Shown: positions 1 through 23,438, numbered from the stretch's first letter. The stretch is DNA of 24,000 bases from Methanobacterium sp. (GCF_049723875.1 NZ_JBNAKN010000005.1:15112-39111), one strand, 5' to 3'. Notes: generated by a model from the sequence alone, not told the origin. Numbers and translations: made by a program.

Positions 1-1003
1 ATCTTGCATAAACAGATCTTGCAATATTAGGATCGTTAGTTCCTTTAATTATTGCTCTTCCATCTCGAAATACAGATATTTCATATTTTTCTGTCTTAAA
101 AAGCAAAATAAAATCGGCGCATTTAATGCTGCCTAAGTGTTCCAGGTTAGATGCAAGCTCTCTTAAATCCATATCTTTTGGATCTGCAGGAGTTATTTGA
201 ATTGCATTTCGACCGCAAAGAGAGGTAATAATTTCTCTATCTTCTGAGTTCAGATATTCATATTCTTCAAGGGAACAGCAGTTACATTCATCATTTTTTC
301 TGACGAGTATTTCATCCATTGAATGATTCCATGCATCATAAACTATAAGACGCCCATCCTGTTCATTTTCTGGCCTTGCTTCACCAAGAAGTATTCTTAT
401 AGCTTCTGTACTTGCCATCGATCCCATAATCACGGTTATGGTATTTAATACACCCATTGTATCACATGTTGGGAGCGAACCTGGTTTTGGAATATGTGGG
501 TAAAGACATCGAATACATGCAGCACCAGGTAAGATATTCATTGTCATTCCTGATGTTCCGATTGCACCAGTGTATATCCATGGAATTTCTTCTCGAACAC
601 ACACATCGTTTATGAGCATTCTTGTTAGGATGTTATCTGTCCCATCAAGAACTAAATCAACGTCTTTTATGATTTCTTCCACGTTAGTATGGTTTAAATC
701 TTTTACAATAGGTTCAACTTCAATAGCAGAGTTAATGAGTTTAAGTTTTTTGGTTGCAGCAACCGCTTTTGGTTCTCCAACATCAGTTTCATCAAATAAT
801 ACCTGTCTTTGTAAATTATTTAATTCAACAAAATCTCTATCTAAAATGGATATTTTACCAATTCCAGCACGTGCAAGATTATTTGCGGCGGCTGTTCCAA
901 GAGCTCCACATCCTACAATAAGAACATGGCTTTCTGAAAGTCTTTTTTGACCTTCTTCCCCAATGTTCTGTAATATTTCCTGTCGTGAGTATCTATTTTC
1001 CAT
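1..1003 (-). CDS. ThiF/MoeB/HesA-family E1-like adenylyltransferase (partial; 3' end runs off the left edge)
   Basis: My own minus-strand translation from the ATG at 1003..1001 reads MENRYSRQEILQNIGEEGQKRLSESHVLIVGCGALGTAAANNLARAGIGKISILDRDFVELNNLQRQ... and stays open to position 1. It has the RYSRQ motif, a GxGxxG Rossmann motif and a Cys cluster (CIRC...PTCD) typical of the family. A GGTGA sits 7 nt upstream of the ATG. It is missing from the ORF track because no stop lies inside the window; track ORF 570..950(+) is its antisense shadow. Confidence 0.8.
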   Translation of the reverse strand, partial: MENRYSRQEILQNIGEEGQKRLSESHVLIVGCGALGTAAANNLARAGIGKISILDRDFVELNNLQRQVLFDETDVGEPKAVAATKKLKLINSAIEVEPIVKDLNHTNVEEIIKDVDLVLDGTDNILTRMLINDVCVREEIPWIYTGAIGTSGMTMNILPGAACIRCLYPHIPKPGSLPTCDTMGVLNTITVIMGSMASTEAIRILLGEARPENEQDGRLIVYDAWNHSMDEILVRKNDECNCCSLEEYEYLNSEDREIITSLCGRNAIQITPADPKDMDLRELASNLEHLGSIKCADFILLFKTEKYEISVFRDGRAIIKGTNDPNIARSVYAR

Positions 1004-1145
1004 ATTTCAATCACCTGAAGTTTTGGGTCAATCCCTGTAAAAATTGAAAATATTTACGGTTGCGAAGCTCTGCTTCGTAAACATCAAAAATCTTCGATTT
1101 TTGATAGGATTGTCTGGAGTATCTATTTTCCATGTTATATTCACC
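981..1145. repeat. Hairpin array A1 flanked by an imperfect 35-nt direct repeat that duplicates the ThiF-like start codon region
   Basis: Direct repeats at 981..1015 and 1111..1145 match at 29/35 positions, with a 17-nt exact core gagtatctattttccat that includes the start codon. Between them are the stem-loops tgcgaagc-tct-gcttcgta (1061..1079) and atcaaaaatc-ttc-gatttttgat (1083..1105, 10-bp perfect stem). Confidence 0.85.
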
Positions 1146-1186
1146 AGATATGTAAGTTACTATATAAAATTTAATAAAAACAAAAA

Positions 1187-5815: not shown

Positions 5816-6430
5816 TTAATTACTTAATTGCTGTTCTATATATTTTTTAGCATCTTCTAAATTTCCCTGCCTTAGATATTCCTGTATGTTTTTATCATTT
5901 AAAATTTTATATAAATAATCTCTACGTTTTTTTTGATCATTCATATTTTCTTTTAAAATGTTTCGTGTGAAATTCTGGAGTTCTAACTGTAAAACATCTT
6001 CTTCAAGTATCACTTTTTGTATTCTTTTTCTTAACTCTTTTGCCATAAGAGGGCTTTTTCCACCAGTAAATATACAAAATTGCACATCCCCTATAGAAAA
6101 AGAAGAAGGAATAATTAAATTACCTTCATCTGGCTGATCGGCCCGATTTAAAAGCTTTCCTTTGGCTAATTTTGCCACGCGCTCATTTAATTCATGATCT
6201 CCAGTAGATATTACCACAAGATCAGACCAATTAATCCATTTTTCAACTTCATCTAAAGGTTTGAAAGTAGCTCCAAGATCAATTAGATCATTTAAAATTT
6301 CTTTATTTATAATAGTAACATTGGCCCCTGATTCAAGGAATCTTCGGGCTCTTCGAGTTCCAACCTCTCCTGCACCAACAATTAAAACATTTTTGTTTTC
6401 CATTTGCAGGAAAAGAGGTGTCCAACCCAT
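5816..6430 (-). CDS. sirC: Precorrin-2 dehydrogenase / sirohydrochlorin ferrochelatase (CysG N-terminal-domain type)
   Basis: The N-terminus is typical of the family: [41 protein letters not shown]. It is about 200 aa and sits immediately upstream of hemA in the same orientation. Confidence 0.8.
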
Positions 6431-6706
6431 ATTTAGATCTCCGATTCATAATTGAAATTTAGTTGACTTAACCTTTTCCCTAAAAGATTAATATTGTCGA
6501 AAGTTATGGACTTTCTGACCTGAAAAATCAGTGATTTTTCAGGGGTTTTTTGATCAAGCCTTTTTTCTCTGAAAAAAGCCCTTGAAAATCTACGATTTTC
6601 GGGGCGCCAAAAATTCAAAGAATTTTTGAGCGGTTGATGCTGTAGAGATGTCCAACCCATATTTAGATCTCCAATTCATAATTAAAATTTAATTGGCTTA
6701 ACCTTT
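6414..6706. repeat. Hairpin array A2 flanked by a 63-nt direct repeat that duplicates the sirC start codon and leader
   Basis: Direct repeats 6414..6476 and 6644..6706 match at 58/63 positions, and all 5 mismatches are G/A transitions. Stem-loops lie between them: cctgaaaaatca-g-tgatttttcagg (6519..6543), cttttttc-tct-gaaaaaag (6560..6578), gaaaatc-tac-gattttc (6584..6600) and caaaaattc-aaa-gaatttttg (6608..6628). Confidence 0.9.
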
Positions 6707-10548: not shown

Positions 10549-11450
10549 AAAATTTCACCCAAAATAATTCTGGCTAACCTCACTTTATCATTGATGGTCT
10601 TCATGTTTGTGTTTGTTATAACGACCTTTGATATTAGTTTTTCTATTTTTTTCTCAGATTCTATGTCCTCAACATCTATGATAAACTTGTCCATAAATTC
10701 CTTATAAATTGTTGCAACACCTTCACACGATACTTCGTATCCCATTGCATTCATAAACTTTGCTGCGGGACCACTTACAGGATTTCCACCTATTATTGGA
10801 GATACTGCAACAACATAAGAGTTTTTAAGAGCTTTTCTTACTCCATTCATTGAGATTATTGGCCCTATGGATGTTATCGGATTAGATGGCCCTATTATGA
10901 CCATATCTGAATCTTCAATAGTACTTATTACATCATCTGAAGGTTCAACATCTGCATATATTATATCTTCCACTTCAGGCTGTGCCTTTTTTCCAACCAG
11001 AAATTCGTGGAAGCTCATTTCCCCTTCATCTGTTATAATCTTGATATTAGATTGCTCATCACTCATAGGAATGATCTTTGATTTAACACCTAATTTTTTT
11101 CTTTGAATATCTACGACTTCAGAAAGAGGATACTTCTCCATTAGCATAGTCTTTTGTATCTTAATGGCGCGATCTTCATCCCCAATTCTTAAAATCTCAT
11201 TATAACCCATTTCTTTTAAAGTTTCATGGGTTGTAAATGTATCTTTGTCAATACCGTACCATGTGTTTTCATTTATAATTCCTGCGAGAGTATACATCAC
11301 AGTATCTATATCTGGTGCTATATAGTTTCCTGATATATATGTATTTTCTACTGTGTTTACAATTATATTGAGATCTTCGGGATCGGTTGTCTGGACTATC
11401 CCCTGAATTAATTTTGGAGTTCCAGTTCCTCCAGAAAGTATTGTTATCAT
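10545..11450 (-). CDS. cofD: 2-phospho-L-lactate transferase (F420 biosynthesis)
   Basis: It has the characteristic CofD N-terminus [18 protein letters not shown], is about 300 aa, and neighbours cofE. Confidence 0.9.
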
Positions 11451-11708
11451 ATAGCTCGTTTTTAAAGTTTGTTTTGTAGTTAATGATTTTAATGAAGATT
11501 AAAGCATACACGTTTTATTTATAGTTAAATACTCACTATTTTTTGGATCATATTAATCTTTTGAAAATCACAGCCCACAGGTTTTTAGGATTTGATGCTT
11601 TAATTCATGCTATTCAAAACAGTGTTTTTAAGAGTTTCAGTTTCATTAGTGAGTATTTATCCATATAACCTGTCTTTAAAGTTTGTTTGTATTAACGTTT
11701 TTATGATG
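11448..11708. repeat. Element A3: imperfect ~47-nt direct repeat duplicating the cofD start codon and leader, enclosing a ~165-nt insert
   Basis: 11448..11495 (catatagctcgtttttaaagtttgttttgtagttaatgattttaatga) and 11662..11708 (catataacctgtctttaaagtttgtttgtattaacgtttttatgatg) are roughly 80% identical with small indels and share a 14-nt exact core, tttaaagtttgttt. The insert has a 12-bp inverted repeat aaatactcacta (11527..11538) / tagtgagtattt (11647..11658) and weaker A/T-tract hairpins such as caaaac-agt-gttttt. Confidence 0.7.
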
Positions 11709-14794: not shown

Positions 14795-15403
14795 TCACCT
14801 GTTCTTTTTAACTGTGGCCCATGAATGCCTCACAAAATCAGGTAAATTTTCATAGGTAAATCTCTTTAAAAATGCAATTGTTTTAGGATCGCTAGGATAT
14901 CCTGATCCAACATCTTTATATTCCTTTCTTATTCTATCAATAGCTAAATCACGTTCAACTTTGGCAACTATAGATGCTGCTGCCACAATTGGAAATTTAT
15001 CTTCAGCTTTATGTTCAGCTATAACCTTAAGATTCTCCTTAACACTCTCCATTTCGTCGCAAAATCTTTGAGGTTTAATATCTAAACAATCTATATAAGC
15101 CACATCAGGGTCAAAATGTCCTATAACTTTTTTCATGGCAATTTTTTCAATTTCGTTTAGATTGACATCTTTAGCCCTCAAATTATCAATGTCTTTAGCT
15201 TCTATTCTAACAGTGTAAGATTCCGCAATTTTATTTATTCGTCTTGCCAGTACAGTCCTTCTTCCAGAAGTCAATCTTTTAGAATCTTTTAACTGAAGCC
15301 TTTCAAGCTTCTCAAGTTTCTCTTCGTCTATTGCTACTCCGCACACTACAAGAGGTCCAATTACAGGCCCTCTACCCGCTTCATCTATGCCGATTATTTT
15401 CAT
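14795..15403 (-). CDS. rnhB: Ribonuclease HII
   Basis: MKIIGIDEAGRGPVIGPLVV carries the DEAGRG catalytic motif. The size is about 200 aa, and the C-terminal half has the GSGYPSD motif. Confidence 0.9.
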   Translation of the reverse strand: MKIIGIDEAGRGPVIGPLVVCGVAIDEEKLEKLERLQLKDSKRLTSGRRTVLARRINKIAESYTVRIEAKDIDNLRAKDVNLNEIEKIAMKKVIGHFDPDVAYIDCLDIKPQRFCDEMESVKENLKVIAEHKAEDKFPIVAAASIVAKVERDLAIDRIRKEYKDVGSGYPSDPKTIAFLKRFTYENLPDFVRHSWATVKKNR

Positions 15404-15489
15404 TGTATCTAAAAAAAGTTTTTTTTGATTTAATAAAAAGTTTAGTATTTAATTTAAGAAAAAAATTTGAGAAATAAGTCAGGAACAAC

Positions 15490-21815: not shown

Positions 21816-22550
21816 ATGAAGTTATCAACACTTTTTATCATAGCAGGGATGGTAATCATCTCCCTTTATTTTATGGTAGAAGTAAGTTTCTATGCAACAA
21901 CAGAGAATGTTGTTCTAAATAAATCAGATACTCCTTTTCTTGAAATACCCAAAATAAGTGTTGATCAAAATATCAACAACAAATCCGTAAATTACGGAGT
22001 GTATTATGAACCCGAATCTGCAAAACCCGGTTATGGAACTGTGGTACTAGCAGGACACAGAACATTTTACAGTTCTCCTTTCTTAAATCTAGATAAACTA
22101 AAAACTGGAGATAATATAACTGTATCATGGCCAGAAATAGGAAATGTCCAGTACACAGTAGTAAGATCATATATTGTTCCTGCATCATACCAGCTATCTT
22201 TAGATCAGGGCAAAACTCTTATTCTGTATACATGTTATCCTCTGGGATCATCCAAAGAAAGATTAATTATACAGGCAAATCAAACTAAAATAACCCCATT
22301 TGCCTATTCAAAAGCAGCAAATTCGAATAACGGGAAAAAAGATTTCCCATATGCTCCGTTATTAATAGCTGCCTTTTTAGGAATAGGTTTAGTCTTAAGC
22401 TATTTATATCCTGTAAAAGATGATAAAATATTTATTTTCATAACTGCAGTTGCCCTCACACTGTTTTTATTATATGGGTACCTGTTTCCAGTTCCAGGAG
22501 ATCAAATATCATCACAGATATCCAATTTGAGCGATATATTTGGAGGTTGA
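21816..22550 (+). CDS. Sortase-family cysteine transpeptidase, membrane anchored (N-terminal TM plus two C-terminal TMs)
   Basis: LEIPKISVDQNI...PGYGTVVLAGHRTF supplies the His, TLILYTCYP supplies the TLxTC-type Cys, and ERLIIQA supplies the Arg, completing the sortase H-C-R triad in canonical order. The TM segments are FIIAGMVIISLYFMV, LLIAAFLGIGLVLSYLY and IFIFITAVALTLFLLYGYLF. Confidence 0.8.
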   Translation: MKLSTLFIIAGMVIISLYFMVEVSFYATTENVVLNKSDTPFLEIPKISVDQNINNKSVNYGVYYEPESAKPGYGTVVLAGHRTFYSSPFLNLDKLKTGDNITVSWPEIGNVQYTVVRSYIVPASYQLSLDQGKTLILYTCYPLGSSKERLIIQANQTKITPFAYSKAANSNNGKKDFPYAPLLIAAFLGIGLVLSYLYPVKDDKIFIFITAVALTLFLLYGYLFPVPGDQISSQISNLSDIFGG

Positions 22551-22551
22551 A

Positions 22552-22597
22552 GAAAATCTCTTCGAGATTTTCGAAACCCCAAAAACTTTGTTTTTGG
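22552..22597. repeat. Hairpin array A6 (two modules) immediately after the sortase stop
   Basis: The two modules are gaaaatctc-ttc-gagattttc (22552..22572, 9-bp perfect stem) and ccaaaaac-ttt-gtttttgg (22579..22597, 8-bp perfect stem). Confidence 0.8.
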
Positions 22598-22667: not shown

Positions 22668-23039
22668 ATGGATGTCGAAGATAAATATTTCAAAAATATT
22701 TCAAGCAGAGAACGAGCAATTTTTGAAGGTGCAATTACAATGGGCGCTTTATTCCATCAGTTTATTGGAACACCTGTAAATTCAGAAAGTGCAGAAATGC
22801 TTGAAAAATCAATAAAAAGAGCAATGGAACTTCAACCATGCATTGAAAAAGTCGAAGTGAAAATAGACAGGAAAATGCTTGAAGAAGCTAAAAGTGAATT
22901 TGATTATGTATCTCTAAACGGAGATATGATAGATGTAAGAGTAGTTTCAACATATAATAACAAAAAAGCGGTTTTAAGGATGGAATATATCAAAGAGTTA
23001 AAGTATCCTTTGATGTATGTGGAATATATTGATGAATAA
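22668..23039 (+). CDS. mptD: Probable archaeal dihydroneopterin aldolase (MptD-like, methanopterin biosynthesis)
   Basis: It is about 120 aa, with ERAIFEGAITMGALFHQFIGTPV near the N-terminus. From memory this matches the conserved ERAIFE-G-x-LGAL-HQF-GTP block of the MJ0408/MptD family. I did not verify this by search. Confidence 0.5.
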   Translation: MDVEDKYFKNISSRERAIFEGAITMGALFHQFIGTPVNSESAEMLEKSIKRAMELQPCIEKVEVKIDRKMLEEAKSEFDYVSLNGDMIDVRVVSTYNNKKAVLRMEYIKELKYPLMYVEYIDE

Positions 23040-23438
23040 TTAATAAATTACAGAATGTTTTTGATCCTATCAAACCTTCGGTTTGATTGTTTACGAAATT
23101 ACATTTCGTAACCGGAAAAATTGGAAATTTTTCCATGCCCAAAAATCAGAGATTTTCGACAGCTATTGAAAATCTTGATTTTCAATGCCGCAAAACTACG
23201 TTTCGCCGGCTTTTTTATAAAAAGCCAGCAAAATTTATAATTTTGTGGTGTGCAAAAATTATAAATTTTTGCAGTTACGAAACGCGGTTTAGTAAACGTT
23301 AAAAATCTATGATTTTTAACATCCTGCAAAATCAAGTGTTTTGCGGCCCACAAAATCCTTGATTTTGTTGGGGCTGTTGAGGAGTTAAAGTATCTTTGAT
23401 GTATGTTAAAAATATTGATGAGTAAACAAATTACAGAA
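22995..23438. repeat. Hairpin array A7: 13 consecutive stem-loops flanked by a ~60-nt imperfect direct repeat that duplicates the 3' end and stop codon of the MptD-like gene
   Basis: Direct repeats: 22995..23055 (gagttaaagtatcctttgatgtatgtggaatatattgatgaataattaataaattacagaa) and 23382..23438 (gagttaaagtatc-tttgatgtatgttaaaaatattgatgagtaa---acaaattacagaa). The stem-loops span 23069..23368. Perfect 9-10 bp examples are at 23091..23111, 23114..23134, 23165..23186, 23251..23273 and 23298..23320. Confidence 0.9.

Follow-up and report, generated by a model that had tools for sequence, protein, structure and literature searches.

In bacteria, repetitive extragenic palindromes (REP/BIME) are arranged in mosaic clusters and mobilised by RAYT Y1 transposases (PMC2817692). 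Insertions with long target duplication leave direct repeats of >30 bp and of variable length, both of which align to the one copy that a related genome has (PMC2853133). These repeats are unique to their locus and often overlap a gene end, and no transposase or integrase is associated with them (Nobusato et al. 2000; Furuta, Abe and Kobayashi 2010, PMC2853133). The known cargo of such insertions consists of kilobase-sized bacterial restriction-modification complexes, and no archaeal case survived the screen (PMC2853133). For Methanobacterium thermoautotrophicum, a review reports no apparent MITEs (PMC10969869), and the palindromic repeats of Volvox organelle DNA are hairpin repeats spreading in an A/T-rich genome (PMC2670323). 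[quoted passage not shown]

The locus described here is part of a window of 24,000 nucleotides from Methanobacterium sp. (GCF_049723875.1 NZ_JBNAKN010000005.1:15112-39111), the whole stretch of DNA analysed. A gene of the ThiF family, encoding an E1-like adenylyltransferase, is located at positions 2 to 1003 on the minus strand, as are all features of this locus given below. Its start codon is the ATG at 1003-1001, while the 3' end lies beyond the window. In a Pfam search, the gene product matched PF00899 (ThiF; E-value 8e-79, residues 5-242), and its N-terminus, MENRYSRQ, is common to all orthologues in the locus comparison. The gene for a GMC-type FAD oxidoreductase (1187-2527, stop codon TAA at 1189-1187, PF00732/PF05199) is the conserved upstream neighbour of ThiF according to the synteny in relatives. 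The start region of the ThiF gene is present twice. The proximal, functional copy (981-1018) consists of tca-GGTGA-ttgaaat-ATG and codons 2-8 and runs on into ThiF, matching the single copy of the relatives. The distal copy (1111-1148), referred to as the decoy copy, contains a second GGTGA (1145-1141), a second ATG (1133-1131) and again codons 2-8. Between the two target copies lies an inserted hairpin-module element of 92-95 nt (1019-1110), and A/T-rich promoter-like boxes of putative function (1161-1180) are found 5' of the distal copy. Rfam 15 gave no match at the gathering threshold anywhere in the window.

A duplicated start region with two clean hairpins between its copies had been proposed in an earlier note on this DNA, and both were recovered. 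Positions 981-1015 and 1111-1145 are identical at 29 of 35 positions, with a longest exact run of 17 nt (ATGGAAAATAGATACTC), and the repeat can be widened to 981-1018 and 1111-1148 (31 of 38 identical). The same repeat score was reached by just 8 of 3000 random window pairs placed 130 nt apart in this genome. Hairpin A (ATCAAAAATCgaaGATTTTTGAT, 1083-1105) has a 10-bp stem and a DNA dG of -6.5 (z -4.5), and hairpin B (CGAAGCagaGCTTCG, 1063-1077, within the 1061-1079 of the note) a DNA dG of -5.6 (z -4.4). A degenerate third hairpin, C, is located at 1037-1057. Folded as DNA, the whole insert forms three consecutive hairpins with a z of about -5.3 on either strand. In the RNA fold, an outer 7-bp stem formed by CAATCCT (1112-1106) and AGGGATTG (1036-1029) encloses hairpins A, B and C; the leader RNA as such folds modestly better than shuffled sequences (z -2.1), into independent hairpins. 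The insert also contains a TATA-like GTAAATATTTT at 1057-1047 and, on its sense strand, two T5 runs.

The origin of the spacing of approximately 130 nt between the copies was traced in the orthologous loci by searching a 1-kb query spanning the ThiF locus in 40 relatives. Positions 1-490 and 586-1001 of the query align to overlapping stretches of one copy in the relatives G009, G016, G008, G022 and G018, so that both repeat copies map to a single copy there. HSP chaining against G008 resulted in a 35-nt overlap and a 95-nt insert. When the loci were read by eye, a single start region with a short intergenic spacer was present in 16 of 18 congeners, and about 48 of 50 readable species representatives, a set overlapping that of the 18 congeners, have a single start without insert. 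An ancestral spacing of this size, which the earlier note had named as the observation speaking against its reading, was therefore not encountered; the orthologous loci show the reverse, and the insertion assumed in the note accounts for the spacing. The distal copy retains the ancestral upstream context including an A/T-rich promoter-like box, as had likewise been supposed. In alignments made by eye with insert-free loci, the box shared with the relatives is tttttattaaatttta (1180-1165), which overlaps the motif ttttatata (1169-1161). The distance of about 30 nt given for this motif is in line with its position relative to the distal ATG (27 nt) but not relative to the start of the repeat (12 nt). 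Metagenomes were searched for further insert-bearing ThiF alleles, and none was found among 8 contigs with a readable upstream region. The duplication at ThiF is 35-38 nt long, i.e. it constitutes a direct repeat of >30 bp that aligns to a single copy in an insert-free relative. By comparison of the alleles, the ThiF locus is identified as an insertion with target duplication.

The inserted sequence has 56 dispersed matches in the same genome, the best of them with 74-82% identity over 61-81 nt. In these matches, a unit made up of three hairpins recurs, usually in the form ...cGAAAATCgtaGATTTTCg-atgtt-tGCGAAGCtaGCTTCGCa-acc-GTAAAAACCtttGGTTTTTAC.... Arrays, defined as at least three perfect hairpins with stems of at least 7 bp, were counted 175 times in the genome, compared to 10 in a first-order Markov control. 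On a rough longest-ORF gene map, 153 of the 175 arrays (about 90%) are intergenic, in all orientation classes. A role of the arrays as terminators enriched between convergent genes was considered and dismissed, as their distribution (105 tandem, 25 divergent, 23 convergent) mirrors the numbers of the intergenic regions. Of 22 congeners, 19 gave matches to the module; the other genera searched gave none. The right end of the ThiF insert, GGATTGACCCAAAACTTCA, matches the family module, and in a shuffle test the outer part of the insert was similar to the family module ...AAAAGGATTGATCAAAAA in each of three alleles (p 0.001, 0.000 and 0.004). On these matches, the ThiF insert is assigned to a family of hairpin modules with A/T tracts that is spread across Methanobacterium. 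A recent donor copy was not recognised, the best match elsewhere in the genome reaching merely 89-90% over 46-49 nt. Other arrays share blocks of 100-150 nt at 90-96% with each other, which suggests that multi-module pieces are copied between loci. In one methyltransferase-like ORF, the original 3' end has given way to a copy of the family. This case had been taken for an 'in-frame' insertion of 81 nt; actually, 82 nt were added, and the C-terminus is replaced rather than extended.

The earlier note regarded ThiF as the second case of a pattern first noticed in the same window at the start of a sirC-like gene ('A2'). This is correct and understated, since the architecture is found at three further loci of the window. 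At the sirC-like gene start (6414-6706, minus strand), which has the same family and architecture, 63 nt of duplication were detected, and about 73 nt in relatives: G008 is without insert, G012 and G015 have a duplication of approximately 73 nt around an insert of 31-32 nt, and hairpin modules are present within the duplication in the genome studied here and in G009. The start of cofD (11448-11708, minus strand) is duplicated around an insert of roughly 165 nt. The third locus is the 3' end of a gene encoding a 123-aa protein, which ends at 23039. Here, a hairpin array of roughly 320 nt from the same family (22996-23437, plus strand) contains nine perfect stems of at least 7 bp, and the last 14 codons, the stop codon and 17 nt are duplicated (about 60 nt; 62-nt overlap compared to the insert-free G008). 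Since the duplication also occurs at gene 3' ends, it is a property of the insertion of the element and not of gene starts. For the same reason, the idea that the repeat marks the 5' end of an mRNA, with its left boundary at the transcription start, was abandoned.

Reciprocal comparison of all arrays with G008 (392 kb) and G015 (1.2 Mb) yielded about 70 presence/absence events. Most insertions of the family show an overlap of at most 7 nt or a few replaced bases; overlaps below approximately 10 nt may be alignment overrun. Beyond these, a tail of long duplications was found, all at gene starts or ends, with lengths of 33 (at C6:117244 of this genome), 35-38 (ThiF), 62, 63-73 and 70 nt. The last of these was detected in G015, where an RNase J-like gene has at its start a 70-nt duplication enclosing a 90-nt insert; the genome studied here is insert-free at this site. 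The insert begins with GAAACCTTTAGAAAAGGTTTCATCCAAA, the same left module as in the ThiF insert (AATCCTTTAGAAAAGGATTGACCCAAA), and a compensatory stem change distinguishes the two left modules (AAaCCTTTAGAAAAGGtTT vs AAtCCTTTAGAAAAGGaTT). Because two unrelated genes carry the same module beside a duplicated start, there is strong sequence evidence that the element, and not gene-specific slippage, accompanies the duplication.

The order of events could nevertheless have been reversed, i.e. slippage might first have duplicated 80-130 nt at the ThiF 5' end in tandem, after which the truncated upstream copy decayed and was colonised by hairpins. With an HSP-chaining screen, hairpin-free duplications of 70-110 nt, either tandem or with filler, were recovered from other gene ends (for example C2:561277 in this genome and, in G008, the homologues of C4:72063 and C5:14119 of this genome), which indicates that these genomes have a background of plain duplication events. 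A tandem origin would also be in line with the simplest insert-bearing allele, that of G006, which has merely about 40-45 nt between the copies. The sequence between the copies, however, does not resemble ThiF codons 9-45 (shuffle p 0.55, 0.89 and 0.67 for the three alleles), yet matches the family module; the same left-end module is present at the independently duplicated start in G015, and the insert directly adjoins both copies at all loci examined. A tandem duplication as the first step is therefore given very little probability, and a duplication of the ThiF 5' end as the source of the intervening sequence was rejected on the missing similarity.

Imperfect direct repeats that overlap a gene end are also typical of the att sites of integrases, and the two copies might be read as the attL and attR sites of an integrated element, which deletion has since reduced to about 90 nt. 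The probability of such a remnant is close to negligible: no integrase or other cargo is present, the repeat differs in sequence at every locus and ranges from 33 to 73 nt, the material between the repeats is always the genome's own hairpin family, and most insertions of this family are without duplication.

Among the loci read, the ThiF duplication is restricted to the genome studied here, to G015 (Methanobacterium sp. MBAC-LM) and to G006, a distant metagenome-assembled genome. The G006 insert consists of the hairpin CAATCCTTT-AGAA-AAGGATTG followed by ACCCAAAG.... In the two other genomes, extra hairpins are nested at the same loop point of a hairpin of the G006 type, directly after CAATCCT. 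Their inserts open with the same hairpin A and diverge afterwards; given the shared nesting point and the shared hairpin A, these two alleles are of common origin. In the trees of both flanking genes, G015 is the sister of the insert-free G008 (support 99/96 and 100/99), the genome studied here groups next to G009, its closest relatives being insert-free, and G006 is placed far outside the clade of the two. Furthermore, the upstream spacer of G015 is identical to that of G016 and not to that of its sister G008. The distribution of the insert is patchy and does not follow the species tree. Consequently, at least three to four precise losses, repeated gains at one site or transfer of alleles are needed to explain it. 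In terms of sequence events, several exact deletions from one direct repeat to the other, interspecies exchange of small patches or a combination of the two would be required. The distal copy of the genome studied here is identical to the single functional copy of G008 at 35 of 35 positions, while the proximal spacer has changed at 4 of 7 positions. A constraint on the distal copy was not accepted from these values (0 of 35 changes compared to G008, 2 of 40 compared to the distal copy of G015), as the sites are too few.

An ORF of 40 codons (1011-1133) extends from the distal ATG through the insert. Its translation agrees with the one given in the earlier note, and its stop codon (TGA, 1013-1011) is indeed the TGA of the GGTGA (1015-1011) located 7 nt before the real ATG. 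The encoded peptide has no Pfam match. A transcript that starts from the ancestral promoter-like region and carries this decoy ORF is plausible, given the ancestral sequence, promoter-like box included, that is still found upstream of the distal copy. The decoy ORF is probably also translated, as an intact Shine-Dalgarno (SD) sequence and ATG are situated behind this region. A purposeful arrangement in which the leader ORF ends in the SD sequence of the real gene was not supported, because both the stop position and the peptide differ in the two other species with an insert. The three alleles encode MENRYSRQS... peptides of 40 aa (genome studied here), 30 aa (G015) and 29 aa (G006), which diverge after residue 9. 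The decoy stop is found 27 nt before the real ATG in G015 and 7-10 nt before it in the genome studied here, and overlaps the gene start in G006. With the exception of two, all orthologous loci read are without leader. Judged from these alleles, the leader ORF is probably incidental and not a conserved regulatory peptide.

A function of the leader would be conceivable if the decoy ORF was kept by selection, with translation proceeding across the T-tract hairpins and being followed by termination-reinitiation at the TGA in the SD sequence. The hairpins would otherwise terminate transcription or block scanning of the leader, and the insertion would have been tolerated solely owing to this coupling. 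T5 runs are potential termination signals for archaeal RNA polymerase, and the two on the sense strand of the insert would be such terminators. The positions of the stop codons fit a coupling as well: the decoy stop overlaps the SD sequence at ThiF, lies 2 nt before the ATG at sirC and forms an ATGA overlap at the RNase J-like gene of G015, and in the three ThiF alleles it is confined to the stretch from 27 nt before to 10 nt after the real ATG, although their inner modules and frames differ. In all three species, moreover, the distal copy has preserved its SD sequence, ATG and first codons, which in the genome studied here are those of the functional start of G008 throughout the 35 positions.

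Much of this is expected without selection. In the hairpin arrays, stop codons occur at 0.047 per triplet compared to 0.078 in shuffled sequences, and 22% of 32-codon windows are open compared to 6.5% after shuffling; since the arrays are stop-poor, open frames across them are common by chance. The TGA within GGTGA is intrinsic to the ThiF ribosome-binding site (RBS), and in some relatives, G020 and G001 among them, the upstream gene appears by eye to end at or beside this TGA. A frame that is out of phase and reaches the A/T-rich region between SD sequence and ATG almost always stops there, so that a stop at this position is nearly automatic once the frame is open. Closure is early in the decoys of cofD (16 codons) and of sirC in G009 (19 codons), and two hairpin-free duplicated starts in G008, inspected by eye, appear to have lost the decoy ATG. 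Decoys that are open throughout and end only a few bases away from the real start were found at ThiF, at sirC in the genome studied here and at the RNase J-like gene of G015. The crude product of the chance probabilities for these three independent loci is about 1e-3, so that read-through translation may to some extent be under selection. The sample behind a functional leader is small, and its alleles are not mutually independent. Together with the peptide, which is not conserved among the three alleles, these observations make a functional leader a distinctly improbable reading.

The locus is very probably explained by the insertion of a hairpin module into the ThiF start, which duplicated the target from the RBS to codon 8 and gave rise to the leader ORF as a by-product. 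A non-coding, REP/BIME-like module was inserted a few codons into ThiF, after ...TACTCACGACA, and 35-40 bases of the target, from GGTGA through codon 8, were duplicated in the process. The gene would have survived this event, as a complete start (RBS, ATG and coding sequence) was re-established on the downstream side of the insert by the duplication; the upstream copy would have persisted as a decoy following the former promoter. The leader ORF would then simply be this decoy start reading into the element up to the first out-of-frame stop, the TGA in the real GGTGA.

With regard to the enzyme involved, the Y1/RAYT transposase (PF01797), reverse transcriptase (PF00078) and Cas1 (PF01867) families were searched in the genome, which is 97.9% complete. 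No match was obtained for any of them, the search for PF01797 being carried out in six frames with controls that responded. An IS200-like Y1/RAYT transposase, a reverse transcriptase or Cas1 as the mobilising enzyme was discarded on this basis, and with it a retroelement insertion by target-primed reverse transcription. The duplications of 33-73 nt also differ from the fixed, ruler-defined length of a Cas1-type reaction (neo-CRISPR repeat or casposon). By eye, the insert ends at ThiF, sirC, 22996-23437 and the RNase J-like locus have no terminal inverted repeats in common, nor is one end of a single insert an inverted copy of the other. Classical cut-and-paste transposons produce a fixed, short target duplication. 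Because the duplication length at the loci described here varies from 0 to 73 nt and shared inverted termini are missing, an event of replication or repair would fit the duplicating step better than a classical transposase reaction. The nascent strand might leave the target, copy another hairpin array and return upstream of the point of departure; alternatively, widely staggered nicks might be filled in around a captured fragment. The mechanism is conjecture, since neither a donor copy nor an insertion intermediate was found. The preference of long duplications for gene ends may reflect that an insertion into a gene end is survived only if the duplication restores the RBS, the ATG and the first codons, or else the last codons and the stop codon, and that only there does selection keep one copy recognisable.

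Compared to the systems described previously, the hairpin modules resemble REP/BIME most in their organisation. They are imperfect palindromes of approximately 20-25 nt with hundreds of copies in variable mosaic arrays, are almost entirely intergenic and genus-specific and show turnover between close species, i.e. many short and mostly extragenic palindromes are present as in REP/BIME. They differ from REP/BIME in their archaeal host, in stems made of A5/T5 tracts and in the absence of a Y1/RAYT gene from the genome. To our knowledge, target duplications of 33-73 nt are not a described feature of REP. With insertions accompanied by long target duplication, the ThiF locus and its sister loci share locus-specific repeats of >30 bp and variable length at a gene end, a single copy in the insert-free relative and the lack of a transposase or integrase. 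The cargo, in contrast, consists of non-coding hairpin modules of a multicopy family (40-350 nt) without restriction-modification genes, and most members of this family are inserted without long duplication. Like MITEs, the modules are small, non-autonomous and multicopy and are able to add ORF segments and regulatory signals; unlike MITEs, they have no shared terminal inverted repeats at the four loci inspected, no parent IS was found, and overlaps of 0-73 nt replace a fixed short target duplication. The palindromic elements of Rickettsia are hairpin repeats of A/T-rich genomes and can sit inside genes. The likeness to Rickettsia and Volvox palindromes lies in the spread of hairpin repeats in an A/T-rich genome, one of them within the methyltransferase-like ORF, while sequences and hosts are unrelated; we know of no report of modular arrays and long target duplications for these palindromes. 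Finally, the decoy ORF ends in the SD sequence of the real gene, which is the usual geometry of termination-reinitiation in coupled upstream ORFs of prokaryotes. It differs from these in being made by duplication, in that sequence, length and stop position are not conserved, and in its putative effect.

New in this study are the series of ThiF alleles with the minimal G006 form and nested growth, the distribution off the species tree and the case of the RNase J-like gene. To these are added the spectrum of duplication lengths, the negative results for RAYT, reverse transcriptase and Cas1, and the stop-codon statistics, which undercut the reading of the leader ORF as functional. For annotation, the duplicated start is a trap, as a gene caller may take the distal ATG as the gene start or call a spurious small ORF. 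It is considered unlikely that the duplication lets hairpins colonise the first codons of essential genes by means of coupled translation, with an undescribed archaeal insertion process behind it. If this was true, ribosomes starting at the duplicated SD sequence and ATG would keep transcription from ending prematurely and feed translation into the gene, and the insertion process, be it enzymatic or based on replication, would generate duplications that are tens of bases long. Matched alleles with and without insert, available in cultured strains such as Methanobacterium sp. MBAC-LM, bring the long target duplication to a scale of 100 nt. As natural experiments, the loci bear on how archaeal genes tolerate leaders with T-tracts, hairpins and a decoy start.

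At the start of the 449-aa RNase J-like gene of Methanobacterium sp. MBAC-LM (G015:C1:355283-355444, corresponding to about 15283-15444 of locus L189), a stretch of 70 nt comprising the Shine-Dalgarno sequence, the ATG and 19 codons is duplicated, with a 90-nt insert between the copies. The decoy ORF, i.e. the frame opened by the duplicated upstream ATG, is 54 codons long and its TGA stop overlaps the real ATG. The source genome is without an insert at the matching site. The duplicated start of cofD (window 11448-11708) encloses an insert of roughly 165 nt with weaker hairpins. Here the decoy ORF is 16 codons long and its stop lies a long way 5' of the real ATG, a counter-example to the rule that such frames terminate where the gene itself begins.

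Duplications were also found at gene ends and in the absence of hairpin modules. At the stop of a sortase-like gene in the related genome G008, a 49-nt duplication flanks a 70-nt hairpin insert, while the source genome harbors one copy of this hairpin-bearing stretch (window 22536-22584, own C5:37647-37695). At four sites, gene starts or ends carry tandem or filler duplications that are 70-110 nt long and lack hairpin modules, namely C2:561277-561299 of the source genome, the G008 homologues of its C4:72063-72156 and C5:14119-14189, and the MBAC-LM homologue of its C18:61833-61923. In both module-free start duplications of G008, the decoy ATG is apparently mutated. An 81-82-nt hairpin element outside the window (C5:116394-116476 of the source genome) lies inside a methyltransferase-like ORF, towards its 3' end; in place of the final ~46 codons found in G008, this ORF has ~33, of which the element encodes 27-28.

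At the ThiF-family gene start (minus strand, window 981-1148), the distal decoy copy (1111-1148) is identical to the single functional start of G008 (L027) at 35 of 35 positions, whereas the proximal functional copy (981-1018) carries, relative to it, a cluster of four changes in the 7-nt spacer between Shine-Dalgarno sequence and ATG (ttgaaat versus atataac); the sites are too few for a statistical test of this asymmetry. In Methanobacterium oryzae (G020, L033) and G001 (L032), the upstream GMC-type FAD oxidoreductase gene apparently ends at or adjoining the GGTGA preceding ThiF, and judged from this arrangement the pair resembles an operon with translational coupling. In the clade of the source genome, by contrast, the genes are separated by 60-80 nt that include a promoter-like box. 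The spacer 5' of ThiF is identical between MBAC-LM (L022/L086) and G016 (L025), although both flanking genes place MBAC-LM with G008, a conflict suggestive of mosaicism or recombination on a small scale between these species at the ThiF locus.
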